Positions 1 through 14,916 of a stretch of DNA of 15,098 nucleotides are shown piece after piece (the stretch's first letter is position 1; each line of letters opens with the position of its first letter). The position numbers and the translations under genes are program-made. The notes under the pieces were generated by a model. The model was not told where the DNA came from, made no database searches, and saw only the letters and a list, made by a program, of their open reading frames with translations. The DNA is from a virus, in IMG/VR virus record IMGVR_UViG_3300045988_068227, positions 1 through 15,098 of that record; one strand, written 5' to 3'.

Positions 1-129
1 GGCTTTCGTTATTCCCAATGAGAACACGACCCCCATTTGGTTAAAAAACCACGAAAAAATACTTGACAAATAATAAGCTGTGTGTTATTATAATTATAGG
101 AACAATGAAACCACATAAAAATAAGGAGG
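1..129. repeat. Left inverted terminal repeat (74 bp perfect, imperfect to about 129)
   Basis: Bases 1-74 are the exact reverse complement of 15025-15098. My manual alignment continues to the AAGGAG at about 129 / 14972 with 7 mismatches and one 1-nt indel. Long ITRs are typical of protein-primed linear phage genomes. Confidence 0.9.
63..91 (+). promoter_or_regulatory. Early promoter inside the left ITR (sigmaA type, extended -10)
   Basis: TTGACA at 63-68, a 17-bp spacer ending in TGt, and TATTAT at 86-91 (part of TGTTATTATAAT). The first SD and ATG follow at 123-140. Confidence 0.75.
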
Positions 130-137
130 AAATTAAA

Positions 138-314
138 ATGACAGAAGCAAGATTGTATAATTTAGCTTATGAACAATTACTTGAAAATTTTGTTGAGGTG
201 TGTGACTGTGTTCTGTCACATCCTAATGATGAAGTAAAGCAATATGAAAAGGAGATTTTATGGACTGAGTTAGTTCAGCTTAAGTCAGAAATGAGAGATA
301 AAAATATTAATTAA
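138..314 (+). CDS. Hypothetical early protein (58 aa)
   Basis: The ORF track starts at TTG 63, but that TTG is the -35 box. In-frame ATG 138 lies 8 nt after AAGGAGG (123-129). No motif recognised. Confidence 0.6.
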   Translation: MTEARLYNLAYEQLLENFVEVCDCVLSHPNDEVKQYEKEILWTELVQLKSEMRDKNIN

Positions 315-327
315 GGAGGAATAAAAA

Positions 328-744
328 ATGAAAAAAATAAAGGTAGTAAGTATTGATACGATAGTGAATATGAAAGGTGGCAAGCCTTATTATGAAAACA
401 AGTATAGAGAAGTGGGGGATAAATGTTATCACATTGGATATAGTTCTTATAGTTTGGAAACTGCTCTTGAATATAAAGATGAATTTTTTGAGTTAGTAGA
501 AATAGAAAGTGACTTAGTTCCATTTAATGTAAAATACAAAGTAGTATTCGAAATATTTAAACAAGATATAGAGCTAGGGCTATACGATAAATCTTTAGTA
601 GCAGTGGCTATGCAAATTGGCAGACTATCTGCCTTTTTAGAGCTATCAGATTTTACAGAGGACGAGAAAGATAATGAAGAAAATAAATTGCGTGAATTAT
701 GCAATTGTTGGGAAAAAAGATATTATTCAAAGGAGGAAAAATAA
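328..744 (+). CDS. Hypothetical early protein (138 aa)
   Basis: GGAGG at 315-319 lies 8 nt before ATG 328. The acidic C-terminal part is EDEKDNEENK. No family recognised. Confidence 0.7.
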   Translation: MKKIKVVSIDTIVNMKGGKPYYENKYREVGDKCYHIGYSSYSLETALEYKDEFFELVEIESDLVPFNVKYKVVFEIFKQDIELGLYDKSLVAVAMQIGRLSAFLELSDFTEDEKDNEENKLRELCNCWEKRYYSKEEK

Positions 745-1176
745 ATGATTCAATACAGACTACATAATATTACCGATTTTGGCGTAGAAATCCACGACTT
801 TTACACTGAAAACTCATTAAACAACTACATAGCCTTATTTGTAGACCCTCCGTATTGGGTTGAAAATTTAGAAGCACATGAAAATGTGTATATAGGTTTT
901 GACGGTCATACAAAAGTAGTTACCACCGATAAACTAGATGACTTAAATGTTTCACGTGAAACATCACACGAAACTGAAATAGACTGGATAAAAAGGCACA
1001 CACCTATAGAAGAAGAAAAAGAACCATACACTAAACTAGAAAAGATATCTTCTTTCTTAGGTATTTTATTCGTCATTATCATGACAACTTTTTTATTATA
1101 TCTTTTCTTATCTTCTGTATCATTTATAGCAGAACATTTTTCAGAGTTTACTTGGAAAATTTTTAACATTTTATAA
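745..1176 (+). CDS. Hypothetical early membrane protein (C-terminal transmembrane segment)
   Basis: GGAGG at 732-736; ATG 745 abuts the TAA of the previous gene. A hydrophobic stretch, ISSFLGILFVIIMTTFLLYLFLSSVSFI (about aa 101-128), suggests a membrane anchor. The gene contains one copy of the 18-bp palindrome in its coding sequence. Confidence 0.7.
   Translation: MIQYRLHNITDFGVEIHDFYTENSLNNYIALFVDPPYWVENLEAHENVYIGFDGHTKVVTTDKLDDLNVSRETSHETEIDWIKRHTPIEEEKEPYTKLEKISSFLGILFVIIMTTFLLYLFLSSVSFIAEHFSEFTWKIFNIL
947..964. promoter_or_regulatory. 18-bp perfect palindrome ATGTTTCACGTGAAACAT, copy 1 (intragenic)
   Basis: Exact match read directly from the sequence. It encodes NVSRET within the 745-1176 ORF. 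Confidence 0.85.
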
Positions 1177-1189
1177 AGGAGGAAAACAG

Positions 1190-1384
1190 ATGGCAAAATT
1201 AACAAATCAATTACTACGATACAAAGTAATGTTTACAAAAGGTGGAACGGGCGGTTACACTGCTCGCGTCATGATACCAAAAGAAGCGATACGCGATTTA
1301 GACATTCACCCAGGAGATAGTATTGAGTATACACGTGTACCACATGGATTACTATTAAGAAAAGTGCAAAAGGAGGGAGATTAA
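1190..1384 (+). CDS. AbrB/SpoVT/MazE-type DNA-binding protein (64 aa), candidate transcriptional regulator
   Basis: AAGGAGG lies upstream of ATG 1190. The sequence YTARVMIPKEAIRDLDIHPGDSIEY fits the SpoVT-AbrB swapped-hairpin signature (xxIPkeirxxLgixxGDxvef). The gene is immediately upstream of the putative TP and polymerase genes. Confidence 0.7.
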   Translation: MAKLTNQLLRYKVMFTKGGTGGYTARVMIPKEAIRDLDIHPGDSIEYTRVPHGLLLRKVQKEGD

Positions 1385-1387
1385 AAG

Positions 1388-2095
1388 ATGGCAAATAAGC
1401 GTAGAAAAAAGAAACAAACAAAAGCCGAGATTATTCAAAAAGAATATTCTCATGAATACACTAAATATCTAGCACGTGTTAGAAATCAGCAAAAACAAGG
1501 TGTACAAGTAAAGATAATTAAACGAGTAAAAAATCCAATGCAAGCTTCGATTGATAGAATTAAAAAACAGACCGCAAAAGAAATACGAAAAAATGCGACG
1601 GTTGTTGATATGATTACAGGTGAGAAAATAACTCCTAAAGAATATGGTCGTAAACATGCACTTGAAAGAAATAGAGTTTTCATTAAATTAACGCCACAAG
1701 AACAGGAATATGCTCGGCTTCACGGTTATGATTTAAAAGAGTTAAAAGCGATACTAAAAAAGGGAATTAGAGTCAATATAGCAACACCTGTGTTAGACTA
1801 TGAACTCATTATTGATTCTTGGTATGATTCATTAGACAGTTTCCATCCAAAAGTAGCAACATTGTTAAGAGAAAAAACCGATGCACTGTTGTCAAATGCT
1901 ACAGAAAGAGATAGAGCGCTATTTGCGTATACCTATTCAAAAGCATCAGAAGCATTTCCAACAGAGTACTACATGGACAAAGCAACGGTTGACGCGGTGT
2001 TTTGGAATATATTGAAAAAGATGGGCGTCCTTAGTGTAACAAAAGACTTTCAAGATTTTATTCAAATGCTAGATATTGCTATAGAAGAAGAGTAA
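1388..2095 (+). CDS. Putative terminal protein (replication primer)
   Basis: The gene is directly upstream of, and apparently co-transcribed with, the protein-primed DNA polymerase, as gene 3 precedes gene 2 in phi29. It has a highly basic N-terminus (MANKRRKKKQTK) and an acidic C-terminus. I could not see direct sequence similarity to the phi29 TP, so the call rests on synteny and composition. Confidence 0.5.
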   Translation: MANKRRKKKQTKAEIIQKEYSHEYTKYLARVRNQQKQGVQVKIIKRVKNPMQASIDRIKKQTAKEIRKNATVVDMITGEKITPKEYGRKHALERNRVFIKLTPQEQEYARLHGYDLKELKAILKKGIRVNIATPVLDYELIIDSWYDSLDSFHPKVATLLREKTDALLSNATERDRALFAYTYSKASEAFPTEYYMDKATVDAVFWNILKKMGVLSVTKDFQDFIQMLDIAIEEE

Positions 2096-2111
2096 AAAAT
2101 GAGGTGATATA

Positions 2112-3998
2112 ATGTCACGAAAAAAGAAAGTAACCTTTTGGGCATGCGATTTTGAGACGACCGTGTGGGGCGAAAAAGTAGAACAGGAAAAACGCAAAAA
2201 ACAAGACAGTACAGAAGTATGGAGCGGAGCTGATGTAGCGTTATATGACGATACTGAAACTGTAACGATAACGCACTCTATAAGAGATTTCTTAAATAGA
2301 TTTTTAACAATGAACGGCAATAATATTTTATATTTTCACAACCTTGCATTTGATGGTTCTTTCATAGTTGATTTTCTATTGAAAGAGGGTTGGGAGTGGG
2401 TGCACTGTAAAGATAAAGAAATGCGTTCAAAGCAATTTCAGACCTGTATTTCAGATATGGGAACGTGGTATTGGGTTAAATTAAAATGGAATAAGACCTT
2501 TTTAGAGATTAGGAACTCGTTGAAGCTTATGCCCTCTTCGTTGAAAAATATAGGTAAATCGTTTGGCACAAAGCACCAAAAATTAGATATGGAATACGAG
2601 GGCGAAAGATACGCTTATTGTAATATATCAGAAGACGAGAAGAAATATATTGAAAATGATGTATTAGTGCTAAAAGAAGCATTAGAAATGATGTTCAATG
2701 AAAAACATGATAAACTAACGATAGGGTCATGTTGCTTAGCAGAGTTTAAAAGTTTTTATGAAAAGAAACAATATGATAAGTTGTTTCCCGATATTAGAGA
2801 GGATTACTTAGACGAAACAATAACAGGCGTATGGAATCAGTGGGATTATGTTCACAAGTCGTATCATGGCGGCTGGTGCTATGTCAACCCCCAATATGCT
2901 CATACTGTAGTAGGTGACGGTCATGTATATGATGTAAACTCTCTCTATCCATCTATGATGCATAGTATCAGCGGAAATAAATACCCATTTGGGCACGGGG
3001 AATATCATAGGGGAGCGCCACCCTATGAACTTATAAGTTCTACTAATAAATATTTTTTTATCCGCTTCAATTGCCGTTTTCAGTTGAAAAAAGGCGCGTT
3101 CCCATGGTTACATATTAGGCAGAGTGCATTATATAAAGCCAATGAAAATCTATATAGCTCGAATGTTAGATATAAAAGTGAATATTATCGGTATTATCGT
3201 GATATCGATGGACAGATGCATGATACAAATATTACCCTCACTATGACCTGTACTGACTGGGAGTTGTTCCAAGAAACATATGATATCTATGATTTAGTTA
3301 TTTATGATTATATATGGTTTTATGCAAGAGAGGGGTTTTTTGATGAATATATTAATAAATATGGAGAAGAGAAAAGAACTTCAAAAGGTTTTAAAAGGCA
3401 GAAAGCGAAACTCTTTTTAAATAATCTCTATGGAAAATTTGCCATGTCGGATAATTCCTCGTATAAAGAGCCTTATCTTGACGAAGATGGAATTATTAGA
3501 TTTATCTTGCACGAGGAACATGAGAAGAAAGTCGGCTATATTCCTATAGGTAGTGCTATTACTTCATATGCCATGAATTTTACAATCCGTCATGCTATGG
3601 CAAATTATGACCGCTTTTGCTATGCAGATACAGACTCTATACACTTGATAGGACTTGACAAAGCGAACAAGGTAGTTGAGCATCCAACTAATTTTTGTTG
3701 CTGGAAATGTGAAAGTACGTTCGATTTTGCATATTATGAGCGTCAAAAGACTTATGCAGAACATATAGTTGAAGAGAATCACGAGCCTTGTGAGCCTTAT
3801 CTTGATATAAAAGCGTGTGGCATGAGTAGTCAAGCGAAACGAAAATTTATCGAAGAGGGTAAAGACATCTCAGAGTTATCTAAAGGTCTGAATATGGAAT
3901 CTTGTAACTTAAAAGCAGAGCGCGTAAAAGGTGGGATTATATTAAGGAGTAAAGACTTTAAAATTCATGAACAAAAAGATAAAAAAATTATGATATAA
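2112..3998 (+). CDS. Family-B DNA polymerase, protein-primed (phi29 gp2-like)
   Basis: Motifs appear in canonical order: Exo I DFET, Exo II NLAFDGSF, Exo III YIENDV, YHGG, motif A DVNSLYPS, motif B KLFLNNLYGKF, motif C YADTDS, and KxY (QKTYAE). The long A-to-B and B-to-C spacings are consistent with TPR1/TPR2 insertions. Confidence 0.95.
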   Translation: MSRKKKVTFWACDFETTVWGEKVEQEKRKKQDSTEVWSGADVALYDDTETVTITHSIRDFLNRFLTMNGNNILYFHNLAFDGSFIVDFLLKEGWEWVHCKDKEMRSKQFQTCISDMGTWYWVKLKWNKTFLEIRNSLKLMPSSLKNIGKSFGTKHQKLDMEYEGERYAYCNISEDEKKYIENDVLVLKEALEMMFNEKHDKLTIGSCCLAEFKSFYEKKQYDKLFPDIREDYLDETITGVWNQWDYVHKSYHGGWCYVNPQYAHTVVGDGHVYDVNSLYPSMMHSISGNKYPFGHGEYHRGAPPYELISSTNKYFFIRFNCRFQLKKGAFPWLHIRQSALYKANENLYSSNVRYKSEYYRYYRDIDGQMHDTNITLTMTCTDWELFQETYDIYDLVIYDYIWFYAREGFFDEYINKYGEEKRTSKGFKRQKAKLFLNNLYGKFAMSDNSSYKEPYLDEDGIIRFILHEEHEKKVGYIPIGSAITSYAMNFTIRHAMANYDRFCYADTDSIHLIGLDKANKVVEHPTNFCCWKCESTFDFAYYERQKTYAEHIVEENHEPCEPYLDIKACGMSSQAKRKFIEEGKDISELSKGLNMESCNLKAERVKGGIILRSKDFKIHEQKDKKIMI

Positions 3999-4001
3999 TC
4001 C

Positions 4002-4030
4002 TTGACTATATTTAGTTGTTATGTTATTAT
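4002..4030 (+). promoter_or_regulatory. SigmaA-type promoter for the p6-like/SSB-like operon
   Basis: TTGACT at 4002-4007, a 17-bp spacer ending in TGt, and TATTAT at 4025-4030 (TGTTATTATAAT, the same box as the ITR promoters). Confidence 0.7.
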
Positions 4031-4098
4031 AATGTAATAAATAAAACATATTACATTACATTCACACTCACAAAAACAGAAAAAAGGAGGAAAACAAG

Positions 4099-4398
4099 AT
4101 GTTTACAAGAACATTAGTATCAGCGGAGGTTTCTGTACAAAGAATCTACAAAGACAAGGAGACGGGCGAAATCATTAAAGATTACTTTGAGGAAACATTG
4201 CCAAACTGTAAGACAAGAGATAAAGCGGAAATCTTGCTTGAACGACAGTACAAAGGCGATATTCTTTCCATTTTGGATATTAAATTCAAATTAGAGAAAC
4301 GCGCTATGACAGACGAACAGTTCTTACTTAATTCAGATGTCAAGAGCGAAAAAATTGTTACCGAAGCCGAGTTGCAGGAAATGAAAAAGGAAGATTAA
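4099..4398 (+). CDS. Putative histone-like dsDNA-binding protein (phi29 p6-like)
   Basis: AAAGGAGG lies upstream. Size (99 aa), the acidic tail, and colinear resemblance to my recollection of phi29 p6 support the call: ERQYKGDILSILDIK vs KRKYKGEPVQVVSVE, and MTDEQFLLNSDV vs LPVEKFLEVATV. This needs alignment to confirm. Confidence 0.45.
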   Translation: MFTRTLVSAEVSVQRIYKDKETGEIIKDYFEETLPNCKTRDKAEILLERQYKGDILSILDIKFKLEKRAMTDEQFLLNSDVKSEKIVTEAELQEMKKED

Positions 4399-4423
4399 AG
4401 GAAAAAACAGGAGGTAAATAACT

Positions 4424-4774
4424 ATGGTAGAAATTAAAGAAATGAGTAGAGAGTTCACAAAGGTCGAAAAGTACCTTATGACAACAGCACCTGACATTGA
4501 GCCGTTAAAAAACATTGCTGATGGTGAATGTATCCCAATTGACGGTTTTCTTATTTTTGACGATATTAAGGATAGTGGAGAAGTACAGGAGATTGTGAGC
4601 ATTATCACACCAGACAAAAAAGTATACTCTGGACAGTCCGCAACCTTTAGGCAGTCTTTGAAAGATATTGAAAGTGTTATGGACGATGAAAAATTTTCTA
4701 TCATTAAAATTAGCGGAAAGACAAAAGCAGGTCGCGATTATATTAATTGCACCTTAGACGTATCAAATTTATAA
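4424..4774 (+). CDS. Putative ssDNA-binding protein (phi29 p5-like)
   Basis: GGAGGT lies upstream. The 116-aa protein resembles my recollection of phi29 p5: LKNIADGECI vs FKNLPDGTII, IITPDKKVYSGQS vs TIFAADGSLYSAIS, and GKTKAGRDYINCTL vs GTSSKGNVFFSLQL. Unverified. Confidence 0.45.
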   Translation: MVEIKEMSREFTKVEKYLMTTAPDIEPLKNIADGECIPIDGFLIFDDIKDSGEVQEIVSIITPDKKVYSGQSATFRQSLKDIESVMDDEKFSIIKISGKTKAGRDYINCTLDVSNL

Positions 4775-4818
4775 TATGATGCCGTGGGAATACCATTTTA
4801 ATTCTCTTCTTATAAAGA

Positions 4819-4841
4819 GGTGGCTATATGCCACCTTTTTT
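4819..4841 (+). terminator. Rho-independent terminator
   Basis: A GGTGGC (4819-4824) / GCCACC (4830-4835) stem with a 5-nt loop, followed by TTTTTT (4836-4841). Confidence 0.8.
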
Positions 4842-4850
4842 ATAAAATAA

Positions 4851-4868
4851 ATGTTTCACGTGAAACAT
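4851..4868. promoter_or_regulatory. 18-bp perfect palindrome, copy 2
   Basis: Exact ATGTTTCACGTGAAACAT. It ends 4 nt before the GGAGG (4873-4877) of the ATPase gene. Confidence 0.85.
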
Positions 4869-4884
4869 GAATGGAGGTGCTAAA

Positions 4885-5931
4885 ATGATGAATGATGATT
4901 ATTATCATTGCGAGAGATTGCTAACCATGAAAGATAAATACGGGAACACACCTGACATTTTTATTGTAGATGGCAACAGAACAGCAGGAAAAAGCTATTC
5001 TATCAAATGTCGACAAGTTTCTGATTTTTTAAAAGATAAATACAGACCGGAAAACCAGTTCATCTATTTATACAGAAATGTTGTTGACATGAAAAATTGT
5101 GCGGACACCTATTTTGGGGATATCGCGGAAAAATTTGACGGTTATGTCATGACAGAAAAAAGCTTGATGCGTGGTGCGTTGGTGCAGTTATTTATTAATG
5201 AAGAGACATGCGGTTATTGTTTAGCTTTGTCGGTTGCTAGAAAATATAAAAAAATGCGTGGGTTGTTCGTCAACATTCGTTCTGTATTTTTTGACGAATA
5301 CCAAGATGAAGATAATATATATTTACCTAATGAAGTAAATAAACTGCTATCGTTGCTTACAACTATCAGTTCGGGTCACGGTAAACAGCACAGGAGAGTA
5401 ATTCTATATATGGCATCCAATACGGTATCATTGCTAAATCCTTATTATAGCGTATTTGGAATCAATAAAATGTTAAAGAGAGATACCAAATTTTTACGGG
5501 GTGATGGTTGGGTATTTGAGCGAACATATAATGAAAGCGCATCAACAGCGTATAAGGAAAGTGCTATTGCGCGAGCTTTTCGAGGTGCTGACTATAACGA
5601 ATACGCGAGCGAAAATAAATATCTAAATGACAATGAATGTCTGATTGGGAAACCATCAGGGCAGTCACGTTATATTTGTACAATTAAGTACAATGATAAT
5701 CTGTATAATGTCAGAAAATATGATGTATGTCTATATGTATCAACAGGGGCAGATGATAGTTTTCCGACACGGATTTGTTTCACAAAAACTGATGTGATAG
5801 ATAACACAGCTATTCGTGTCAACTCGACCCATTATATCGTTACGATGTTACGGGAATATTTTAACAGAGGCTTACTATTATTTGAAAATTTGGAGTGTAA
5901 GAACATGATATTTGATGTCATATCTTTTTAA
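4885..5931 (+). CDS. DNA encapsidation (packaging) ATPase, phi29 gp16-like
   Basis: Walker A GNRTAGKS and Walker B VFFDEY. Colinear with remembered gp16 blocks (QFIYxxR, IPNEV/LPNEV, SNxVSxxNPY). ATG 4885 lies 7 nt after GGAGG and is preferred to ATG 4867, which sits inside the palindrome. Confidence 0.92.
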   Translation: MMNDDYYHCERLLTMKDKYGNTPDIFIVDGNRTAGKSYSIKCRQVSDFLKDKYRPENQFIYLYRNVVDMKNCADTYFGDIAEKFDGYVMTEKSLMRGALVQLFINEETCGYCLALSVARKYKKMRGLFVNIRSVFFDEYQDEDNIYLPNEVNKLLSLLTTISSGHGKQHRRVILYMASNTVSLLNPYYSVFGINKMLKRDTKFLRGDGWVFERTYNESASTAYKESAIARAFRGADYNEYASENKYLNDNECLIGKPSGQSRYICTIKYNDNLYNVRKYDVCLYVSTGADDSFPTRICFTKTDVIDNTAIRVNSTHYIVTMLREYFNRGLLLFENLECKNMIFDVISF

Positions 5932-5948
5932 TGTTTCACGTGAAACAT
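5931..5948. promoter_or_regulatory. 18-bp perfect palindrome, copy 3 (abuts a -35 box)
   Basis: Exact copy that starts at the last base of the ATPase stop codon. Its last T is the first T of TTGACA at 5948-5953. The 20-bp form AATGTTTCACGTGAAACATT spans 5930-5949. Confidence 0.85.
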
Positions 5949-5976
5949 TGACATTTTAAATAATCTGTGTTATTAT
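5948..5976 (+). promoter_or_regulatory. Consensus sigmaA promoter driving the non-coding island
   Basis: TTGACA at 5948-5953, a 17-bp spacer ending in TGt, and TATTAT at 5971-5976 (CTGTGTTATTATAAT, nearly identical to the ITR promoter). Confidence 0.75.
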
Positions 5977-5982
5977 AATATT

Positions 5983-6138
5983 GTACCCAAAATAATGCGA
6001 ACATTGTAATTGATATACACGCACATAGACAAGCAGTCTGATATCAATTTTTTGGCTTTGCGTTCCCTTTGATTCGATTATTTTGTAAAGTACAATATGT
6101 TTCACGTGGACAATGTTTCACGTGAAACATTTTTATTT
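5983..6138 (+). ncRNA. Candidate structured non-coding RNA (pRNA-like); core 5983-6096
   Basis: There is no ORF or SD between 5932 and 6170. The promoter lies directly upstream. The 5' and 3' ends pair (5981-6001 with 6073-6095), and there are internal helices plus complementary loops. The palindrome hairpin at 6113-6130 followed by TTTTATTT could terminate the transcript. See the finding for details. Confidence 0.45.
6097..6130. promoter_or_regulatory. Tandem palindromes: degenerate copy (6097-6114) plus perfect copy 4 (6113-6130)
   Basis: 6097-6114 reads ATGTTTCACGTGGACAAT (3 mismatches). 6113-6130 is exact. The two overlap by 2 nt and lie 5 nt upstream of the TTTACA -35 box. Confidence 0.85.
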
Positions 6139-6164
6139 ACAAACAAATCTATTTGTGTTATGAT
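6136..6164 (+). promoter_or_regulatory. Weaker sigmaA-like promoter upstream of the lysis genes
   Basis: TTTACA at 6136-6141, a 17-bp spacer ending in TGt, and TATGAT at 6159-6164. The predicted start at about 6171 would leave a very short leader before AAGGAGG, which lowers confidence. Confidence 0.4.
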
Positions 6165-6184
6165 AGAAAAAAGGAGGTGATATC

Positions 6185-6421
6185 ATGTCAAATGAAGTTA
6201 TCACATTAATTAATAGTTTAGGGCTTCCGACCGTGGTTGCATGTGCGTCCATGTGGTATGTAAAGTACAGAGAGGACAAAAATGACCAAAAAATTGAAAG
6301 AATGACGGAAGAACACAAGGAAGAAATGACAGATATTACGAACGCGCTGAACAATAACACATTAGCGTTACAACGTATCTGTGACATTTTTGATAGTAAG
6401 GAGGATATCAAACATGAGTAA
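6185..6421 (+). CDS. Holin-like protein (BhlA/UviB-like, single N-terminal TM)
   Basis: A 78-aa protein with an N-terminal hydrophobic helix (ITLINSLGLPTVVACASMWYV) followed by a charged coiled-coil-like tail. It overlaps the endolysin start by 8 nt. Confidence 0.6.
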   Translation: MSNEVITLINSLGLPTVVACASMWYVKYREDKNDQKIERMTEEHKEEMTDITNALNNNTLALQRICDIFDSKEDIKHE

Positions 6422-7400
6422 AAAAGCAGTTGACATTTCCTATCATAATGGGATTATTGATTTTGAACGATTAAAAAACGCTGTCGATTATGTGATTATT
6501 CGATGCGGATATGGACAGGATATGACATCACAAGACGATAAACAGTGGGCAAGAAATGTCAGTGAGTGCGAACGGTTGGGCATTCCATACGGAGTGTATT
6601 TTTATTCCTATGCAAAAACAACCGCTCGAATTGAGGGTGAAATTAATCACTGTCTTAGATTGTTACAAGGGCACACACCTAATCTACCTGTATTTTTCGA
6701 CAGCGAGGAAAAAGGAACACAGTCTGTAGCAAAGCATAACGCAAAGCGTTTTTGTGATGCTATGATTACACACGGGTATAAAGCTGGAATCTATGCTAGT
6801 AAATCATGGTACGAGAATTATATTGGTGAGACTTGGGGGTATGATTTATGGATTGCGCGGTATTCGAATGTGTTAGGTGTAGACAATGTAGACATTTGGC
6901 AGTATTCCAGTAATGGTCGAGTTAATGGCATTAATGGGAGATGTGATGTGAACCACGTTTATAAAGACTATGGAGCTTCAAATCCTGTACCCGATGTTCC
7001 ACAGAGTCCACCAACGCACGCAACCCCAAGAAATGAATTGATTGCCATGGGACAACAGCACGCCATTAATTTTACAGGGGTTCAAATTGCAGTTGACGGA
7101 ATTGTAGGAAGAAATACAAAAAGAATGGCAGTACGCGTGGTGCAACACGCTATGAACATGGATTACGGGCGCACAATAGCAGAGGACGGTCTTGTTGGTA
7201 AAAAGACAAGGGCGAAAGCTGGACGGCATTATGTAAGGCGAGGGGAAACACAGTACTTAGTCACAGCGCTTGAAATCTTATGTTTATTACAGGGAAAAAA
7301 TCCGAACGGTGTGGAACACCCGGGAACATTTGGAGGAGGACTGGCGCGCGCTTGTGGAATTGAAATCGTTTATGCGAAAGATATGTTATATATGATTTAG
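6414..7400 (+). CDS. Endolysin: GH25 muramidase with C-terminal peptidoglycan-binding repeats
   Basis: ATG 6414 lies 9 nt after GGAGG (6400-6404); the track's GTG 6381 start lacks an RBS. GH25 hallmarks: DISYHNG, YVIIRCGYG, GVYFYSYA, LWIARY, WQYSSNGRVNGI. The C-terminus has two DG(I/L)VG(R/K)xT units like PG_binding_1. Confidence 0.9.
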   Translation: MSKKAVDISYHNGIIDFERLKNAVDYVIIRCGYGQDMTSQDDKQWARNVSECERLGIPYGVYFYSYAKTTARIEGEINHCLRLLQGHTPNLPVFFDSEEKGTQSVAKHNAKRFCDAMITHGYKAGIYASKSWYENYIGETWGYDLWIARYSNVLGVDNVDIWQYSSNGRVNGINGRCDVNHVYKDYGASNPVPDVPQSPPTHATPRNELIAMGQQHAINFTGVQIAVDGIVGRNTKRMAVRVVQHAMNMDYGRTIAEDGLVGKKTRAKAGRHYVRRGETQYLVTALEILCLLQGKNPNGVEHPGTFGGGLARACGIEIVYAKDMLYMI

Positions 7401-7402
7401 TT

Positions 7403-7441
7403 ATTATTCACGTGGAACAAAAAATGTTTCACGTGAAACAT
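7403..7441. promoter_or_regulatory. Tandem palindromes: degenerate copy (7403-7420) plus perfect copy 5 (7424-7441)
   Basis: 7403-7420 reads ATTATTCACGTGGAACAA (4 mismatches, with the same TTCACGTGGA variant as 6097-6114). 7424-7441 is exact and ends 5 nt before GGAGG at 7447-7451. Confidence 0.85.
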
Positions 7442-7461
7442 TTTAAGGAGGTTAGTAAAAA

Positions 7462-8469
7462 ATGCCAAATATCAATGTAGCATATCAGTGGGCGGTCAAT
7501 GCGTGTAATGCACCCAATATTGGCTATTCACAGCAATATAGAAGAGGACAGACTGTGAACGGTATTACTTATTATGATTGTAGTTCTTTTATTTCGAAAG
7601 CATTAACGGAAGCGGGATTTTTCTCGGTGAACCCATGGTTCACCACAAGGACAGAAGAGGGATACTTATTACAAGCTGGATTCAAAGAAATTAACATTAA
7701 TGAAGCGTGGCAAGCTGGGGACATCGTGTGGCGTAGTGGACATACTGAGATGGTTTATCAAGGAGCTGGTGTGGGAAATGGAGGGGTTACCATGGGCGCG
7801 CATAGTGGACGTTATCCATTACCCGAACAAGTAAGCATCAACTCTCATGTGTCAAAACCGTCCGCATGGACAAAGATATACCGCTATGGTGATAGTGCTG
7901 GAATGACCCTCGAATGGATTCATGGAAACCGATATCTGACAGATGACGAAATGAAAAATAACGCATATGTATTTTATAGTACAATGTTTTTCAAAGATTT
8001 TACGCTCAATGCAATTGCTGGAATGTTAGGAAATATGGAGATAGAATCTAACATTAATCCCGAACTATGGCAGTCTCTAAAAGAGGGGAATTATAATGGG
8101 GGTTACGGTTTAGTTCAATGGACACCAGCCACAGTCTACACAGAATGGGCGAACGCTCACGGGTACGATATCACAGACGGCTACTATCAGTGTGTTTGGC
8201 TCGATGAAGAAACCGTAAGCAGTGGACAATGGATAGAGACTACGAAATATCCGATATCATGGGAAGAGTTCCGAAAGTCTACAAAAGAGCCAGATTATCT
8301 AGCGTCTGCATTTTTAAAGAATTTTGAGCGTGCAGGAGTGGAAAAAGAAGAGGAGCGTAAAAAGAACGCACTAAAATGGTATGCATATTTGCAGAAGTTA
8401 TCACCGTACCCAATCCACCCACATACACGAAAAACAAAAATGCCACTTTACTTTTTCTTGCCGTGGTGA
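7462..8469 (+). CDS. Virion (tail)-associated peptidoglycan hydrolase: NlpC/P60-like cysteine peptidase plus phage tail lysozyme domain
   Basis: The N-terminal half carries a papain-like signature (YYDCSSFIS ... GDIVWRSGHTEMVY). The C-terminal half has AGMLGNMEIESNINP ... GGYGLVQWTP, typical of the phage tail lysozyme family. This is a functional analogue of phi29 gp13. Confidence 0.8.
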   Translation: MPNINVAYQWAVNACNAPNIGYSQQYRRGQTVNGITYYDCSSFISKALTEAGFFSVNPWFTTRTEEGYLLQAGFKEININEAWQAGDIVWRSGHTEMVYQGAGVGNGGVTMGAHSGRYPLPEQVSINSHVSKPSAWTKIYRYGDSAGMTLEWIHGNRYLTDDEMKNNAYVFYSTMFFKDFTLNAIAGMLGNMEIESNINPELWQSLKEGNYNGGYGLVQWTPATVYTEWANAHGYDITDGYYQCVWLDEETVSSGQWIETTKYPISWEEFRKSTKEPDYLASAFLKNFERAGVEKEEERKKNALKWYAYLQKLSPYPIHPHTRKTKMPLYFFLPW

Positions 8470-8475
8470 TATAAT
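8447..8475 (+). promoter_or_regulatory. Possible promoter for the structural operon
   Basis: TTTACT at 8447-8452, a 17-bp spacer, and a perfect extended -10, TGaTATAAT, at 8467-8475. It overlaps the stop codon of the tail-lysin gene. Confidence 0.45.
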
Positions 8476-8520
8476 AAATTCTGTAAAAGGGTGACACTAA
8501 ATAAAGGAGGTAAATATTGT

Positions 8521-8802
8521 ATGAATTTTAAAGAAGCTTTAAACGAATTAATTGATGCCGTTGCAGACGTAGAGGAACATGGAGACGCTATTGAAGTTTT
8601 ACAAAACTACGAGAGCGAAAGAAGTGGAGAAACTGACAGCGAATGGAAAGATAAGTATACCAAACTCGAAGCCGAGTACAAAAAACGCTTTAAAGAGCGT
8701 ATGAAAGAGTCAGCCACTAACGCAGACAGCGAAGAAAAGAAAGATGAAAAAGAAGAAAAAATTACCGTCGAAGATTTAGACTTTGACGGTAAGACAGAAT
8801 AA
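8521..8802 (+). CDS. Scaffolding protein (phi29 gp7-like)
   Basis: ATG 8521 lies 10 nt after GGAGG (8506-8510); the track's GTG 8491 start is unlikely. A small, acidic, helical protein directly upstream of the capsid gene. Its C-terminal EKITVEDLDF resembles the ETITIEDLEAK I remember from gp7. Confidence 0.75.
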   Translation: MNFKEALNELIDAVADVEEHGDAIEVLQNYESERSGETDSEWKDKYTKLEAEYKKRFKERMKESATNADSEEKKDEKEEKITVEDLDFDGKTE

Positions 8803-8815
8803 GGAGGTATGAAAA

Positions 8816-10087
8816 ATGGCAGAAGCAACAAACGCGAATATATTAAAAGCGGTTACACAGGAACTTTCTTTTGAGGTTCAGAATCATTTACCAACAGAGG
8901 TATCAGACAATTTACAGGCAGTGTATGATAACATTTTAAATTATGCGCCTGTAAGAAATGAAATCGTGCCGTCATTAATCAATCGTATCGGTATGCAGAC
9001 GGTGGACAGTATCGCGTGGAGAAATCCGTTAGCACGATTTAAGAAAGAGCCAATGCGTTATGGCGAGACACACGAGGAAACTTATATAAATATGTGCAAG
9101 GGACGTGTATATGATTCACAAGCAGATTTTAAATTTGCTTTTCAGCAGTATCAGTCCTATATCATGAGCGTGTTCCACAATGTCAATCTTGAAATTCAGT
9201 ACCCAGTCACGGTTACATATGACAATCTGAGAAAAGCTTTTACCAGTGAGTATGGCATTCGTGACATGATTATGGCAAAAATGGAGAGCGCTATCACAGG
9301 GGCGAACTGGGACGAATACCTTGCTATGCGTGATTTGATTAATGTCGGGTATGAAAAAGAGGTGCTTCCGGCAGTGACTGTTGACGCGATTGTAGATGAA
9401 GCATCAGCGAAAAAGTTATTGATTGAGGTCAAAAGAGCTGTTAAAGAATTTGGCTTCCCATTACCAGAAAATAACCCAGCAGGCGCAACTTCTCATGCTA
9501 TGCCAGCAAGTCTGGTTTGGATTACTACGCCAGAAGTAAATGCTCAGATTAGTGTTGACGCTTTAGCTTACGCATTTCACATGGACAAAGCAGACGTGGA
9601 GGTTCAGACGGTCATTGTAGACAAATTTGCGAATAGCGCTATTCAAGGCGTACTATGTGACGTTCGTTTCTTCAACGTGCGCGACCAGTTCAAAGAAATG
9701 AGCGACCAAAGACTTGCGAATGTATTATCTTGGAATTATTTCTATACACAGGTGGAAATGATTAGTGCTAGTCCGTTCTATCCAATCCGTGTATTTACGA
9801 CCGACACAGTTGTTGAAGCACCGACACTGAGCGTCACAGCAGGGACTTACACAGCTGGACAGACACAGGAAGTAGAGGTTACTGTGACAGGTGGTACAGG
9901 CACATATCATCAGAATTTAGTCACTCTTGAAGTAGAAAGCGGTGCTACTTCCGCGAAAACATACGTCATTCCGGGAACGCATCTGTTACACACAGGAGCG
10001 GACGAGACAGGAACTATCGTATTAAAAGCAATTTACAGACCAAACGAGACTATCACAAAGACAGCAAGTTTCACAAAATCGTTGTAA
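8816..10087 (+). CDS. Major capsid protein (phi29 gp8-like) with C-terminal Ig-like domain
   Basis: Colinear with remembered gp8: SLINRIGMQTV..NPLARFKKEP vs SLVDRIGLVVI..NPLKKFKKGQ, VDALAYAFHMDKAD vs VDVLAKAFNMNRTD, and WNYFY vs WNYYY. The C-terminal T/G/V-rich beta segment (SVTAGTYTAGQTQEVEVTVTGG) is BIG2-like. Confidence 0.9.
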   Translation: MAEATNANILKAVTQELSFEVQNHLPTEVSDNLQAVYDNILNYAPVRNEIVPSLINRIGMQTVDSIAWRNPLARFKKEPMRYGETHEETYINMCKGRVYDSQADFKFAFQQYQSYIMSVFHNVNLEIQYPVTVTYDNLRKAFTSEYGIRDMIMAKMESAITGANWDEYLAMRDLINVGYEKEVLPAVTVDAIVDEASAKKLLIEVKRAVKEFGFPLPENNPAGATSHAMPASLVWITTPEVNAQISVDALAYAFHMDKADVEVQTVIVDKFANSAIQGVLCDVRFFNVRDQFKEMSDQRLANVLSWNYFYTQVEMISASPFYPIRVFTTDTVVEAPTLSVTAGTYTAGQTQEVEVTVTGGTGTYHQNLVTLEVESGATSAKTYVIPGTHLLHTGADETGTIVLKAIYRPNETITKTASFTKSL

Positions 10088-10106
10088 TTAACGGAGGTAG
10101 TTATCT

Positions 10107-11723
10107 ATGATAAATTTACCTGTTCAAGGAGGGGTTGCACCACGCGACCCCGAAACAAAATTGAGATTGTATAGTGGAGTACCATGGTCTGACGAGTATG
10201 AACACGTTAGATTATACCAGTCAAAAGAAGATTTGCTAAATCATTTAGAGTTATATCGTAAACATATCAATTGTGTTGACTTGTCACATCTTGCGCCTAT
10301 AAAGCTAGGGGATTATGATATTCGCGTACCATTCACAGAAATGAAAGCACTTAATCTCAATTATTTAGCTTTTCAGAATAGTGGTATTTCTAATGAGTGG
10401 GTGTTTTGCTTTATTAATTCGATTGAGTGGCTCTCTGAAAAAACAACTAGAATTAACTTTTCCTTAGACGTTTTTCAAAATAACTTTTACGATGCAAATA
10501 TCAAACCTTGCTTTGTAGAGTATCATCATATCCCTAGAAGTGCCGACGCAATAGGAGAAAATCTAACACCTGTCAACCTAGAAACAGGCGAAACGATTGT
10601 ATCACGTCACAAAAAATTAGACTTAACACCAACGGAGTGTTGCGCTTTTGTAACACGAGGAACAACAGAGCAAAGTTGGTTTGAGGGTCGCGTTGAAAAT
10701 GGCGTTTATTGTTGGGGTAGTATCGGACATTATGATGTAACTACAGAAGATGGTCTAAAAGGGATTAACACTTTGTTGGAAGATTATAACAATCAAGGTG
10801 CACAAGACGCTGTTATAGGATTATTCATGTCCCCAAAATTATGTACACTTGCTTTAGGTGGAAAAGAAATAAAGCCTAAAATAACAAGTATGCAGATATC
10901 TGACAATGTATTTGAGGGATATAAGCCAAAAAATAAAAAGTTATATTCTTATCCATGGTTATACTGTTTGGCTGACAACAATCAAGGCAATACACATATA
11001 TATAGATATGAGTACAGTTACAACCGTGATAAGTCTCTTGAGTTTGACAGCTACGGTACAATTGCAACGCTACCGCAAGTCTTGACAGCACCGAAAAATT
11101 ATAAGACTCGCGAAGAGTTAGGGCATGGACTAATGAGCGAAGCACTTATTAATGCCTCTTTTCCGATGTGTTCTTTTTCTTCCGATACTTATAGGGCGTG
11201 GCTTGCTCAAAATAAAAGTTCTATCGCTCTATCTCAAGTTCATACCGCTGTCGATGCCACTCTAGGAACAGGTACGGCAATAGCTGGATTGGCTGGTGGA
11301 AGTTTACAGGGAGGTCTTAACGGTCTAGGCAAAACGACGAACGCTTTTTGGGACGCTCTTGGAATGTTAGCTAATCAGACAGACAGGGCAAGAAATTCAG
11401 GAGTAACACATGGAAAAGCGTTATCAGAAAATGTATTGACAGGAATAAAAGAGTGTGGCGTTGATTTCTATGAAATGTCATGTAAAAGACAATTTGCAGA
11501 AATGGCTGATAGCTTTTTCGAGCAATTTGGATATCCGATAAACAAAATCACAACACCGTATTTGCGTTCTCGAAATTACTGGAACTATGTAAAAACTTCA
11601 CATTGTGGCTTCACAGGTACAATTGATTTAGACCAGTTAAAAAAATTGAGAAATATATTTGACAACGGTGTAACTTTGTGGCATACTGACGACATAGGGA
11701 ATTATGGTTTATCAAACGACTAA
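10107..11723 (+). CDS. Tail knob / distal tube protein (phi29 gp9-like)
   Basis: YLAFQNSGISNEWVFCFINSIEWLSEKTTRINFSLDVFQNNFYD aligns with the remembered gp9 block [44 protein letters not shown]. The position between the capsid and portal genes also fits. Confidence 0.85.
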   Translation: MINLPVQGGVAPRDPETKLRLYSGVPWSDEYEHVRLYQSKEDLLNHLELYRKHINCVDLSHLAPIKLGDYDIRVPFTEMKALNLNYLAFQNSGISNEWVFCFINSIEWLSEKTTRINFSLDVFQNNFYDANIKPCFVEYHHIPRSADAIGENLTPVNLETGETIVSRHKKLDLTPTECCAFVTRGTTEQSWFEGRVENGVYCWGSIGHYDVTTEDGLKGINTLLEDYNNQGAQDAVIGLFMSPKLCTLALGGKEIKPKITSMQISDNVFEGYKPKNKKLYSYPWLYCLADNNQGNTHIYRYEYSYNRDKSLEFDSYGTIATLPQVLTAPKNYKTREELGHGLMSEALINASFPMCSFSSDTYRAWLAQNKSSIALSQVHTAVDATLGTGTAIAGLAGGSLQGGLNGLGKTTNAFWDALGMLANQTDRARNSGVTHGKALSENVLTGIKECGVDFYEMSCKRQFAEMADSFFEQFGYPINKITTPYLRSRNYWNYVKTSHCGFTGTIDLDQLKKLRNIFDNGVTLWHTDDIGNYGLSND

Positions 11724-11736
11724 AGGAGGTGTATAA

Positions 11737-12636
11737 ATGCGAAACCCATTAAGAGTTTTTGAGAGAAATATCAATAAAAATAAAAAAGATGATTTTGAAA
11801 TCATTAAATCTATCTTTTTTTATGATATATTTGATATATTTGTAAACAGGTATCAATGGCATAATCTACCCAAAGAAATTTTACCGATGTATATAGAACA
11901 AACTCTATTTTGGCACGGTTTGGGTGTATTCATCAAAGATGATATCGCTGGGTACGCTTTTATGAAAGTCGTATTATCAGGTTTGCCCGATATTTACAAT
12001 ATACCTAAAGATAGAATTGCTTATACAGCAAATGGATATATTGAAGAGTACGGCAAAGAAAACAGCTGTATTTTATGGAATAACTACTCGACTATGCCGT
12101 ATTACTATAAAGCGTTAATGTATGCAGATGCTATGGCGAACACTTGGAAAACAAAAGACATTAATATGTATGCACAGCGTACACCTGTTGCACTTTCTTC
12201 ATCAGACAACGAAAAACTGAGCTTTGAAGTTGTAGGCGAAGAGTACGATAACTATTTACCTATTATAAAGCTGTCCGATTCATTAAACTTAAAAGATATT
12301 AAAGCTTTGAACATGGGCGCACCTTACATCGTTGATAAATGTGAACAAGAATTAAGAGATTTATGGTCACAGGTATTAACATCTTTAGGATATGAAAGCA
12401 ACCCTGTAGAAAAAGGTGAACGTCTCGTGACAGGTGAAACGGCTGGAAATAACGGACAGGTTGAAGCAAATCGAAATGTTGGTCTGACATTACGGAGAAG
12501 ATGTGCAAATGCTATAAATAAATTATGGGGTCTTAATGTAACGGTAGACTTCAATAGTGAACTGCCTACTATGCTAAATGGTTATGTACCCGACAAGTAT
12601 ATGCAAAAAGGGAAAGAGGGTGACGAGATTGAGTAA
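11737..12636 (+). CDS. Portal / upper collar (connector) protein (phi29 gp10-like)
   Basis: WHNLPKEI, AQRTPVAL, GAPYIVDK, EKGERLVTGE and INKLWGLNVTVDF match the gp10 blocks WENLPPTI, AQKTPVLI, DAPYVVDK, EKKERMVTDE and INELYGLNVKVKF. Confidence 0.9.
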   Translation: MRNPLRVFERNINKNKKDDFEIIKSIFFYDIFDIFVNRYQWHNLPKEILPMYIEQTLFWHGLGVFIKDDIAGYAFMKVVLSGLPDIYNIPKDRIAYTANGYIEEYGKENSCILWNNYSTMPYYYKALMYADAMANTWKTKDINMYAQRTPVALSSSDNEKLSFEVVGEEYDNYLPIIKLSDSLNLKDIKALNMGAPYIVDKCEQELRDLWSQVLTSLGYESNPVEKGERLVTGETAGNNGQVEANRNVGLTLRRRCANAINKLWGLNVTVDFNSELPTMLNGYVPDKYMQKGKEGDEIE

Positions 12637-13330
12637 ATACACAACAACAGTTAAAAAAATTTGTGAAAGCTTTATCCCATCCCAAGAATTATGGAGCATG
12701 GACTTATCCGTGCAAAGAACTATAGATAAAACACAAGACAAATTTTTTGACTTTGATTTTCCGTTTTATTCTGAGGACAGAAAAGATTTATATACTTTTA
12801 AGACATACTTTTTACTTAGGTATTGGAATAATTATATTGGCTTTGAAACTCTAGGAATGTGGAAAACTGCTTTCATGGCAAAAATGCATGAATTAATGCC
12901 ATATTATACTAAATTGTATGATGCAATTCAAAATGATAACCCTTTTACAAATGTAAATATAACAACCACAGAAGCAGAAAAAGGAAACGAAAAAACAACG
13001 ACTAAAGCAACAGATTCAGGAGACAGCGAGGTAAAAAACAATCAAAACTATGAAAATATTGACAGCGACAACCCACAAGTTACCGTAGCAACACAAGACT
13101 ATGCTAGCGCTATGAGCAGAGGCGAAACTGTCAATAACACGACTACAAATGCAAAAAATGAACACACAGGAAACGATAACAAAGACAGTAAAAGAGACAG
13201 AGACACGAAAGAGATAGGATTAAGAGGAAAATCAACGAGTGAAGCAATCGAAGAATACCGAGAGCAAATACAGAATATCAATCAAGAACTTGTAGAAGCT
13301 TGCCGAGATTTGTTTCTAAAAGTTTGGTGA
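12629..13330 (+). CDS. Lower collar protein (phi29 gp11-like position)
   Basis: The gene immediately follows the portal gene. The block FDFDFPFYSEDRKDLYTFKTYFLLRYWNNYIGFETLGMWK..LMPYYTKLY resembles lower-collar proteins of small podophages. Start is uncertain: TTG 12629 (GAGGG 8 nt upstream), GTG 12620, or ATG 12578 (59-nt overlap with the portal gene). Confidence 0.65.
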   Translation: MSKYTTTVKKICESFIPSQELWSMDLSVQRTIDKTQDKFFDFDFPFYSEDRKDLYTFKTYFLLRYWNNYIGFETLGMWKTAFMAKMHELMPYYTKLYDAIQNDNPFTNVNITTTEAEKGNEKTTTKATDSGDSEVKNNQNYENIDSDNPQVTVATQDYASAMSRGETVNNTTTNAKNEHTGNDNKDSKRDRDTKEIGLRGKSTSEAIEEYREQIQNINQELVEACRDLFLKVW

Positions 13331-13346
13331 TAAGGAGGTGAAATGC

Positions 13347-14186: not shown

Positions 14187-14208
14187 ATTAAAGGAGGATT
14201 TAAAAACT

Positions 14209-14916
14209 ATGAGTTCAACAAACAAAACAACCTATTACGAATTAAGCCAGTATATCGGTACTGACAAGCCGACATATTTAGGTGATTACAATTCTGACAT
14301 GAGTAAAATTGATGCAGGAATTCACGGGGCAGACGATAAAGCCACCACAGCTTCACAAAATGCAGGAAGCGCCATCGCTAGAGTTGGCGAAGTTGAAAAA
14401 ACTCTGCAATCACATACAAGCGCTATTACAACGTTGCAGACAGATGTTACTGGTTTAAAAGAGAGTGTAAAAACAGCACAGAACACAGCCACCACAGCAG
14501 ATGGAAAAGCGGACAGTGCACAGCAGACAGCCAACAGTGCACTTTTAACCGCTAATAATGCCAGCGCTAAAGCCGATAATGTGAATAAAGATGTAACACT
14601 GTGGACAGGTAGTGTTAAAAACTCAAGTGTTGCACTTAGTGACAGCTTGACGAATTACAGATTTTTATATATTGAAACAAACGCAGGAATTAGCCCTTTG
14701 TTTGCTTATAGAAATGACAAGAAAAAATATGTAGGTTGTCAACAGGTTTTAAAAGATGGGGCGACAAACACTGTGTCAACAATATCAGTCAAACTAGATA
14801 TAGTTGATGATACGCACATCACGGTTAGCACTAATGTTATTGACCACGCATTTAGTAGTACGCACCCAGCACTTGATGCTGTGTACACATTAGGCATTTA
14901 TGGCATCCCGAGATAA
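14209..14916 (+). CDS. Receptor-binding / tail fibre protein
   Basis: The N-terminus (TYYELSQYIGTDKPTYLGDYNSDMSKIDAG) is the common phage fibre N-terminal motif. An A/T/Q-rich coiled-coil stalk is followed by a C-terminal globular domain of about 100 aa beginning VTLWTGS. Confidence 0.65.
   Translation: MSSTNKTTYYELSQYIGTDKPTYLGDYNSDMSKIDAGIHGADDKATTASQNAGSAIARVGEVEKTLQSHTSAITTLQTDVTGLKESVKTAQNTATTADGKADSAQQTANSALLTANNASAKADNVNKDVTLWTGSVKNSSVALSDSLTNYRFLYIETNAGISPLFAYRNDKKKYVGCQQVLKDGATNTVSTISVKLDIVDDTHITVSTNVIDHAFSSTHPALDAVYTLGIYGIPR

Follow-up and report, generated by a model that had tools for sequence, protein, structure and literature searches.

A candidate prohead RNA gene beside the packaging ATPase gene in phi29-like phages of Clostridia-type bacteria

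Positions 5983-6138 of the virus record IMGVR_UViG_3300045988_068227 (IMG/VR) are best explained as a predicted, independently transcribed non-coding RNA gene with a 111-nt core that resembles the prohead or packaging RNA (pRNA) of phage phi29. The window, that is, the whole stretch of DNA analyzed here (15,098 nt, positions 1 to 15,098 of the record), represents nearly the whole genome, of about 15 kb, of a phi29-like podovirus in which all genes lie on the + strand. The putative RNA gene is found in the 253-bp gap between the stop codon of the packaging ATPase gene (5929-5931) and the start of the holin gene (6185). An earlier reading of the letters alone (the original prediction) had proposed a candidate pRNA at this site, and the proposal is now supported on computational grounds by the fold, by covariation, by a second lineage and by the partner genes. 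The RNA is pRNA-like on every feature that can be tested in silico, yet it is not demonstrably homologous to phi29 pRNA. Overall, it probably represents a divergent, previously unrecognized family of prohead RNAs in Clostridia-type phi29-like phages.

The gap contains its own transcription signals and no conserved open reading frame (ORF). The RNA promoter is the top sigma-70-like site in the interval 4700-7600, with 11 of 12 matches plus an extended -10, and possesses all elements of the near-consensus promoter that had been described at this position. Relatives keep its -35 and -10 boxes and vary in the spacer. Transcription is predicted to start at about G5983. At the other end, the hairpin 6097-6130 followed by TTTTATTT is the top terminator-like site in the same interval, in line with the terminal hairpin of the original prediction; within it, the half-site 6098-6110 is able to pair with the palindrome at 6112-6131. 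Unrelated terminator hairpins occupy the equivalent position in sister clades. The holin gene (ribosome-binding site (RBS) GGAGGTG, ATG at 6185) and the endolysin gene are served by a second promoter, and the RNA is therefore predicted to form a separate transcription unit. The full predicted RNA is about 155 nt long and ORF-free. Across 78 homologues no conserved ORF is found in the gap, the longest one measuring 8-43 aa and lying on either strand, and a coding explanation was rejected for want of any conserved ORF. The gap had been said to hold no Shine-Dalgarno sequence and only a 4-codon ATG ORF. An ORF of 27 codons opening at ATG 6097 is in fact also present (6097-6180), extending across terminator and second promoter as far as the holin RBS; it lacks a Shine-Dalgarno sequence, as had been stated, and it is almost certainly not coding because its region shows 1-3-nt indels among relatives.

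Folding of 5981-6138 with RNAfold gives a minimum free energy (MFE) of -39.7 kcal/mol with a z-score of -3.64 (0 of 200 shuffles fold as well) and returns the helices that had been drawn by hand. The A helix, formed by the 5' and 3' ends, is present in both the MFE and the centroid fold. Its outermost part had been drawn as a longer helix of which the GUAC/GUAC pairs hold, as they covary, while the UU/AA pairs (5981-82 with 6094-95) are not conserved and probably lie upstream of the transcript start. The U-rich arm proposed to be closed by GG and CC likewise stands in part: the D stem consists of those two G-C pairs only, which are invariant and uninformative in the clade of the window. For the duplex between the 5'-side bulge and the D loop (ACGCA/UGCGU) RNAduplex predicts -6.3 kcal/mol.

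The RNA domain is as conserved as the constrained codon positions of the neighboring ATPase gene. We scored an alignment of 78 related genomes (A1) on the structure given in the original prediction. Mean column identity is 0.952 in the RNA domain (5983-6093), with 56% of columns invariant, compared to 0.944 and 0.956 at ATPase codon positions 1 and 2 (45% and 50% invariant), 0.746 at third positions (11%) and 0.83 in promoter spacers (12-29%). Such conservation shows the domain to be under strong purifying selection though it is, by prediction, non-coding. In A1, 98.2% of cells are paired and 8 pairs have changes on both sides; none of 500 shuffles matches this, and slid controls reach 2 such pairs at most. 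Changes in the A helix include GUAC/GUAC to GCAC/GUGC, A-U to G-C and G-C to A-U (19 sequences), and three of the five pairs of the E stem are compensatory, for example AGAC/GUCU to GAAC/GUUC. The C helix is nearly invariant in this clade, and the bulge CGCAC and D-loop UUGCG are invariant in all 78 genomes. G-U pairs are frequent on the + strand, and the paired molecule is therefore the + strand RNA.

Comparison with sister clades indicates that the bulge and the D loop co-evolve. The lineage alignment (A3) comprises 25 representatives of the window clade, the L080 clade (58% ATPase identity), L192, L194, L197 and L198, and RNA cores are 111-115 nt long in all clades of this lineage. For the whole structure, 93.1% of cells are paired and 22 pairs carry compensatory changes (0 of 500 shuffles; slid controls 36-43% paired), among them 13 of the 17 A-helix pairs. 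The C-helix equivalent covaries in the L080 clade, and the GG/CC D stem is invariant throughout the lineage. Helices thus covary both within the window clade and across its sister clades, which was the comparative check named in the original prediction. RNAalifold, which cannot draw pseudoknots, picked columns 41-45/81-85 as a helix unprompted; these correspond to window positions 6019-6023/6059-6063, the bulge and the D loop. Taken alone, this loop helix has 96.8% of cells paired, five of five pairs changed on both sides, and a covariation score of 0.789 versus 0.272 in shuffles (0 of 500), with slid controls 22-48% paired. The ACGCA/UGCGU complementarity, noticed earlier in a single genome, is therefore one instance of a complementarity that is kept between clades while its sequence changes (Table 1), and by this comparative evidence the pairing is shown to co-evolve. 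The consensus topology is not obtained in the single-sequence MFE fold of the L080 RNA, whose ensemble is diffuse, so that the L080 topology rests on comparative evidence. Although nearly all helix sequences differ, the E-loop AAG(U/C)A is common to the window, L080 and L192 clades and the junction motif CCCUUUGAUU is kept too. The E-loop (6031-6035) and the junction motif (6065-6074) are candidate contact sites for a protein, be it portal, capsid or ATPase.

RNAs of the same design are found in further lineages. The clade of Clostridium phage CS229P1 comprises 80 IMG/VR loci and the isolate, with 66-97% ATPase identity and 62 distinct RNA sequences. Its RNA is 117 nt long with conserved ends GUAUCU...AGAUAUAAA. 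Compensatory change affects 17 of the 23 pairs that RNAalifold draws for the 62 sequences, and the structure including the bulge/D-loop pairs is 93.9% paired. Counted by itself, the loop helix is paired to 88.4% and covaries in all five pairs; three of its positions are paired in 62 of 62 sequences while switching between AU, UA and CG, between GC and AU, and between CG, UA and GC. The C helix occurs in 31 different complementary strand combinations, and the E and D stems covary as well. Phage HM2 has the bulge/D-loop pair GUAGU/ACUAC, with one relative in which pairs of the A helix and of the E helix change in a compensatory manner, and MT836152 has UGCUAA/UUAGCA. A composition-preserving permutation test over 8 lineages, with loops delimited by hand, gives a Fisher p of 2.5e-7. 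In the MT835904 clade the RNA is invariant across 17 loci and hence uninformative.

Gene order ties the putative RNA gene to the ATPase gene. All lineages examined carry the ORF-free RNA on the ATPase strand, downstream of that gene, and its position directly after the ATPase gene, as originally described for the window, recurs in all lineages but L196. Comparative mapping shows this linkage to hold across lineages with only 37-60% ATPase identity. In L196 (2247-3060) an extra ORF of about 190 codons stands between the ATPase gene and the predicted RNA gene; the latter is flanked by a promoter (TTGACT...TATATT) and a terminator of its own and has a new loop pair (GUACA/UGUAC). An own promoter and terminator are likewise found in the window, L080 and HM2. 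The ATPase stop TGA in the L194-L198 and MT835904 clades supplies the TG of an extended -10 (TGATATAAT), so that the promoter is embedded in the gene end. In the CS229P1 clade (L085, L088-L167) the RNA (GUAUCU) begins 0-60 nt past the ATPase stop, often directly. As this leaves no room for a promoter, the RNA of this clade may be processed from a transcript that it shares with the ATPase gene. The gene that follows varies, being the holin gene in the window and L080 and convergent genes in CS229P1 and MT835854.

The architecture of the predicted RNA corresponds to that of phi29 pRNA. On phi29, the consensus of the Rfam pRNA family RF00044 runs A, C (9 bp), a 9-nt 5' bulge with AACC, E, C', UUU, D and A', and the window RNA has the same order (A, C, 9-nt bulge, E, C', U-linker, D, A'). 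Both possess a core of about 111-120 nt with a long, bulged A helix made from the two ends and with a three-way junction, from which a C helix capped by the E hairpin and a separate D hairpin branch off. Bulge/D-loop complementarity is kept while the sequence differs among relatives, both in the phi29 family (Bacillus phages phi29, PZA, B103, Nf/M2, SF5 and GA-1 and the Goe4-like phages) and in the RNAs described here. Both groups also evolve fast, keeping structure while sharing hardly any sequence among relatives. The phi29 D-loop is UGGUU and its pairing AACC/GGUU, with a predicted energy of -2.1 kcal/mol, whereas the loop pairings of 4-7 bp found here are predicted to be stronger (-3.6 to -7.9 kcal/mol). 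The 3' terminator hairpin of the window (6097-6138) corresponds in position to domain II, a dispensable part of phi29 pRNA. The phages are of the same type as well, namely protein-primed podoviruses with a gp16-type ATPase, a gp10-type connector and a type-B DNA polymerase.

By analogy with phi29, the bulge and D loop of neighboring RNA molecules would pair and thereby join the molecules into a closed ring at the portal vertex of the prohead. From this ring the A helices would protrude and dock the gp16-type ATPase encoded just upstream, which would then pump the protein-primed linear genome into the head. We infer from this analogy that the RNA is expressed, that its loops pair between molecules, that it binds portal and ATPase, and that packaging requires it; the portal is its presumed docking partner. 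Circumstantial support for a role at the prohead and ATPase comes from the ATPase-gene linkage in all lineages and from the basic N-terminus of the portal, which was pointed out in the original prediction, is present in the translation and also occurs in Clostridium perfringens phage phiCPV4.

Several observations weigh against this interpretation. A scan with the Rfam pRNA model had been suggested as a check and was negative: RF00044 has no match in the window at its gathering score (100 bits), a local search of 5850-6250 with Rfam including RF00044 at E <= 10 returned only noise, mostly microRNA models, and RF00044 at E <= 1 has no match in 13 loci representing all lineages, while the positive control (phi29 201-318, - strand) scores 145.4 bits. 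Since the control works, the window RNA is to be regarded as having no detectable sequence homology to pRNA. Covariance models (CMs) built from the RNAs described here reach only part of the set. The window-lineage CM (R2) recovers L196 (35 bits) and matches CS229P1-clade RNAs at their exact coordinates, if marginally (18.3 bits, E = 0.013; 15.2 bits, E = 0.087), and has no match to HM2, MT835904, MT836152, phi29 pRNA or anything in phiCPV4. The CS229P1-clade CM (R1) recovers MT835854 (48 bits), is not significant on window 5981-6098 (12.1 bits, E = 4) and has no match to HM2, L080 or phi29 pRNA. Judged by these models, common descent with phi29 pRNA, or among all lineages considered here, is not demonstrated by either CM. 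The D hairpin differs in geometry, with a stem of 2-4 bp and a loop of 7-9 nt as compared to 6 bp and 5 nt in phi29. In the window clade the loop pair is invariant bar one wobble and one break (L063), and the covariation of the loops therefore comes only from comparison between clades. Loop complementarity is weak or unclear in some lineages: several CS229P1-clade members have only three Watson-Crick pairs and one G-U pair, and MT835854 (L081) has a longer D region in which complementarity is unresolvable by hand. Gene location also differs, as the RNA gene lies mid-genome next to the ATPase gene here and at the left genome end, reading outward, in phi29 (19,282 bp), where pRNA (147-320) and gene 16 (16244-17242) are about 16 kb apart. 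A left-end location with transcription from an early promoter is typical of Bacillus phages and probably not essential to the pRNA class. Finally, phiCPV4 (Guelinviridae, L265) has only 31 nt after its ATPase gene (5916-5948) and thus no room for the RNA.

Other phi29-like phages indicate that the RNA is lineage-specific and not universal, at least at the post-ATPase position, because phiCPV4 has only the 31 nt mentioned and Lactococcus phage asccphi28 is reported without a pRNA. The latter has a compact gp16/gp10 motor and a protein-primed genome (PMC7823558), no reported evidence of a pRNA, and an ATPase that forms rings alone. A basic portal N-terminus was considered as a marker of pRNA use and rejected, as the phiCPV4 portal (11400-11546) also starts with MSKRKS, which is as basic as the MARKRS of phi29. 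ORF-free gaps of about 170-215 nt exist near the genome ends of phiCPV4 (for example 16130-16344, 16924-17107 and 17775-17945); a pRNA-like gene could be located there, or the basic N-terminus could have another role. Outside Bacillus phages, a pRNA has been proposed for Streptococcus phage Cp-1, a phi29-like podovirus (Martin et al. 1996, J Virol 70:3678, as cited in PMC6266182). CMs from Bacillus pRNAs do not recover the Cp-1 pRNA proposed in 1996 (PMC6266182), and the window RNA is similar to it in all of these respects: it, too, is a proposed pRNA from a phi29-like podovirus outside the Bacillus phages that Bacillus-pRNA models do not recover. Unlike the Cp-1 proposal, which was reportedly based on a single-sequence fold, the present RNA has hundreds of homologues and covariation in both the helices and the loop pair.

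A different function for the same molecule would account for part of these data. The RNA could be a small self-folding RNA in which bulge and D loop form an intramolecular pseudoknot and which serves as a regulatory small RNA, as a 3'-untranslated-region (3'-UTR) element stabilizing or regulating the ATPase mRNA or as a decoy against host defence. Covariation proves pairing and does not distinguish pairing in cis from pairing in trans, the short D stem sits on a flexible U-linker, and RF00044 homology is absent. The CS229P1-clade RNA, moreover, has its 5' end only a few bases from the ATPase stop and is perhaps part of the ATPase transcript. We nevertheless regard a pseudoknot with such a function as unlikely: topology, element sizes and the positions of the complementary loops copy those of phi29 pRNA, whose pairing is intermolecular, and the phages that carry the RNA possess gp16/gp10-type motors and have it linked to the ATPase gene. 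That the RNA is flanked by a promoter and a terminator of its own in the window, L080, L196 and HM2 argues against this explanation as well, and a 3'-UTR role in particular is contradicted by the inserted gene that parts the RNA from the ATPase gene in L196.

The arrangement of promoter, structured RNA and terminator upstream of late and lysis genes is also what would be seen for a cis-acting leader or attenuator, in which transcripts from 5948 would stop or read through at 6097-6138 and thereby control the holin, endolysin and structural genes, and the flanking palindromes could bind a regulator. This was rejected as very improbable on the strength of the second promoter and of the gene context in sister lineages. 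The holin gene has its separate extended -10 promoter (6136-6164), and in the CS229P1 and MT835854 lineages the genes beyond the RNA are convergent, leaving nothing downstream to regulate. Sister clades keep the 111-115-nt core but exchange the terminator, and a simple attenuator has no use for loop-loop covariation. Even less credit can be given to a DNA-level element (a replication or packaging signal, or a cluster of protein sites) or to chance structure in an AT-rich spacer. The window is indeed AT-rich and palindromic sites resembling protein-binding sites flank the region, but the frequent G-U pairs are allowed as pairs on the + strand only, compensatory changes affect more than 20 pairs, the z-score is -3.64, and conservation equals that of coding positions 1-2. 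A prohead RNA hence remains the preferred reading.

The original prediction held that pRNAs are established only for Bacillus phi29 relatives, and the literature agrees, with reviews up to 2024 (PMC11476376, PMC5066667) as well as PMC6266182 regarding pRNA as exclusive to phi29 and its Bacillus relatives. A 2024 review lists CS229P1 and HM2 as phi29-like (PMC11476376), and our literature search found no published description of the RNA presented here. The CS229P1 record has no annotation in the gap that holds it, and hundreds of gut-virome genomes, deposited isolates included, lack an annotation of the RNA gene. We lean towards the wider view that these are genuine prohead RNAs belonging to a large, hitherto unrecognized pRNA superfamily in Clostridia-infecting and gut phi29-like phages, with the window, L080, L192 and L194-198 clades, the CS229P1-like and HM2-like phages and several fecal-virome lineages as its members. 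If so, a packaging-motor RNA would be ancestral, or at least widespread, in phi29-like phages and not a Bacillus peculiarity, and the RNA gene would originally have been coupled to the ATPase gene. To our knowledge, no RNA other than pRNA has in decades become known as an indispensable structural component of a motor that packages viral DNA. A divergent set of pRNA-like molecules makes ideas on its origin (an RNA-world relic, the replacement of a lost protein domain, a captured cellular RNA) testable, and such a comparison gains from an ATPase identity to Bacillus phages of only about 27% and from an RNA gene that is physically coupled to the ATPase gene. Cultured relatives permit direct work, with CS229P1-3 growing on Clostridium symbiosum and HM2 on C. 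saccharoperbutylacetonicum. The pRNA of phi29 is a main building block of RNA nanotechnology, a field in which a natural collection of related scaffolds whose loop pairs differ and are stronger would be of direct use. If the RNAs are prohead RNAs, they would provide dozens of natural orthogonal kissing-loop 'addresses' of 4-7 bp with which RNA rings could self-assemble. Among the RNAs in the PDB only two assemble more than two protomers, and phi29 pRNA is one of these (PMC12191101).

The gene content of the window agrees with its assignment to the phi29-like phages. The gp16-like ATPase and gp10-like portal genes seen by the original prediction match the Pfam families Podovirus_Gp16 and Phage_connector (GP10), respectively. 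A megablast search of window 4800-7500 against GenBank phages gave no match. The nearest ATPases, 37-40% identical, are those of four fecal-virome contigs, Clostridium phages CS229P1-3 (host Clostridium symbiosum) and HM2, and identity to Bacillus phi29-like phages is about 27%. IMG/VR contains 79 close relatives at 87-99% ATPase identity, as well as further sister clades. The hosts of the RNA-bearing phages are Clostridia-type gut bacteria, not Bacillus. ATG 4885 is a more likely start of the ATPase gene than ATG 4867, because an RBS (GGAGGTG) sits at 4874-4880. A strong terminator (4818-4842, GAGGTGGCTATATGCCACC plus T-run) and a palindrome copy are located upstream of this gene, with no obvious promoter intervening.

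Table 1. Positions and descriptions of the predicted RNA elements, transcription signals, palindromes and genes of the window, and bulge/D-loop pairs of its lineage
Feature	Position	Strand	Description
RNA promoter	5948-5976	+	TTGACA 5948-5953, 17-nt spacer, TG 5968-5969, TATTAT 5971-5976
RNA domain I, pRNA-like three-way-junction fold	5983-6093 (111 nt)	+	RNAfold and comparative evidence
A helix, 5' strand	5983-6003	+	GUAC 5983-5986, CAAAAUAAU 5988-5996, CGAA(CA) 5998-6003
C helix, 5' strand, 9 bp	6008-6016	+	AAUUGAUAU; partner 6041-6049; in MFE and centroid folds
5'-side bulge, 9 nt, equivalent of phi29 CE bulge	6017-6025	+	ACGCA 6019-6023 complementary to D loop
E hairpin	6026-6040	+	stem UAGAC/GUCUG, loop AAGCA 6031-6035
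C helix, 3' strand	6041-6049	+	AUAUCAAUU
U-rich linker, C to D helix	6050-6053	+	UUUU; column identity 0.99
D hairpin	6054-6066	+	stem GG/CC, 9-nt loop CUUUGCGUU; UGCGU 6059-6063 pairs with bulge
Junction motif	6065-6074	+	CCCUUUGAUU; also kept in L080 clade
A helix, 3' strand	6070-6093	+	(UG)AUUCG, AUUAUUUUG, bulge UAAA, GUAC
Intrinsic terminator, 3' hairpin and U-tract	6097-6138	+	hairpin 6097-6130, then TTTTATTT; includes palindrome copy 6112-6131
Second promoter, for holin/endolysin genes	6136-6164	+	TTTACA, 17 nt, TGnTATGAT
Perfect 20-bp palindrome	5930-5949	.	AATGTTTCACGTGAAACATT; overlaps ATPase stop and -35 box of RNA promoter; outside RNA domain
Exact 16-nt palindrome copies	948-963, 4852-4867, 5932-5947, 6114-6129, 7425-7440		
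Degenerate palindrome half-sites	6098-6113, 7404-7419		
Type-B DNA polymerase	2112-3998	+	Pfam PF03175, 2.7e-50
Packaging ATPase (gp16 type)	4867/4885-5931	+	PHROG 2150 terminase, 5e-52; PF05894 Podovirus_Gp16, 7e-34
Holin	6185-6421	+	PHROG
Endolysin	6381-7400	+	PHROG
Major head protein	8816-10087	+	PHROG
Tail protein	10107-11723	+	PHROG
Portal / upper collar (gp10 type)	11737-12636	+	PF05352 Phage_connector, 1.9e-48; basic N-terminus MRNPLRVFERNINKNKK
Lower collar	12578-13330	+	PHROG
Bulge/D-loop pair, window clade			ACGCA/UGCGU
Bulge/D-loop pair, L080 clade			GCGUUA/UAACGC
Bulge/D-loop pair, L192			GAAUCAA/UUGAUUC
Bulge/D-loop pair, L194			CCCA/UGGG
Bulge/D-loop pair, L196			GUACA/UGUAC
Bulge/D-loop pair, L197			UCCA/UGGA
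Bulge/D-loop pair, L198			GGAUA/UAUCC

A recurrent palindrome is associated with the intergenic regions of these phages. The palindrome (AA)TGTTTCACGTGAAACA(TT) is present in five exact copies in the window, where 0.13 are expected, and in two further degenerate ones. Most copies are intergenic and lie right upstream of an RBS or overlap a -35 box, and copies flank the RNA gene. The palindrome at 5930-5949 has a column identity of 0.994 across 78 genomes and is a candidate operator or weak terminator. The 16-mer TGTTTCACGTGAAACA occurs exactly in distant phi29-like phages, namely the L080 clade, MT835854, CS229P1, L196 and phiCPV4; phi29, HM2 and the MT835904 clade lack it. We know of no operator that fits this palindrome; it is probably a conserved operator or terminator module of Clostridia phi29-like phages. 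In phiCPV4 three copies are exact, and single or tandem-pair copies are distributed across four intergenic regions. One copy lies just upstream of the ATPase RBS in both the window and phiCPV4.

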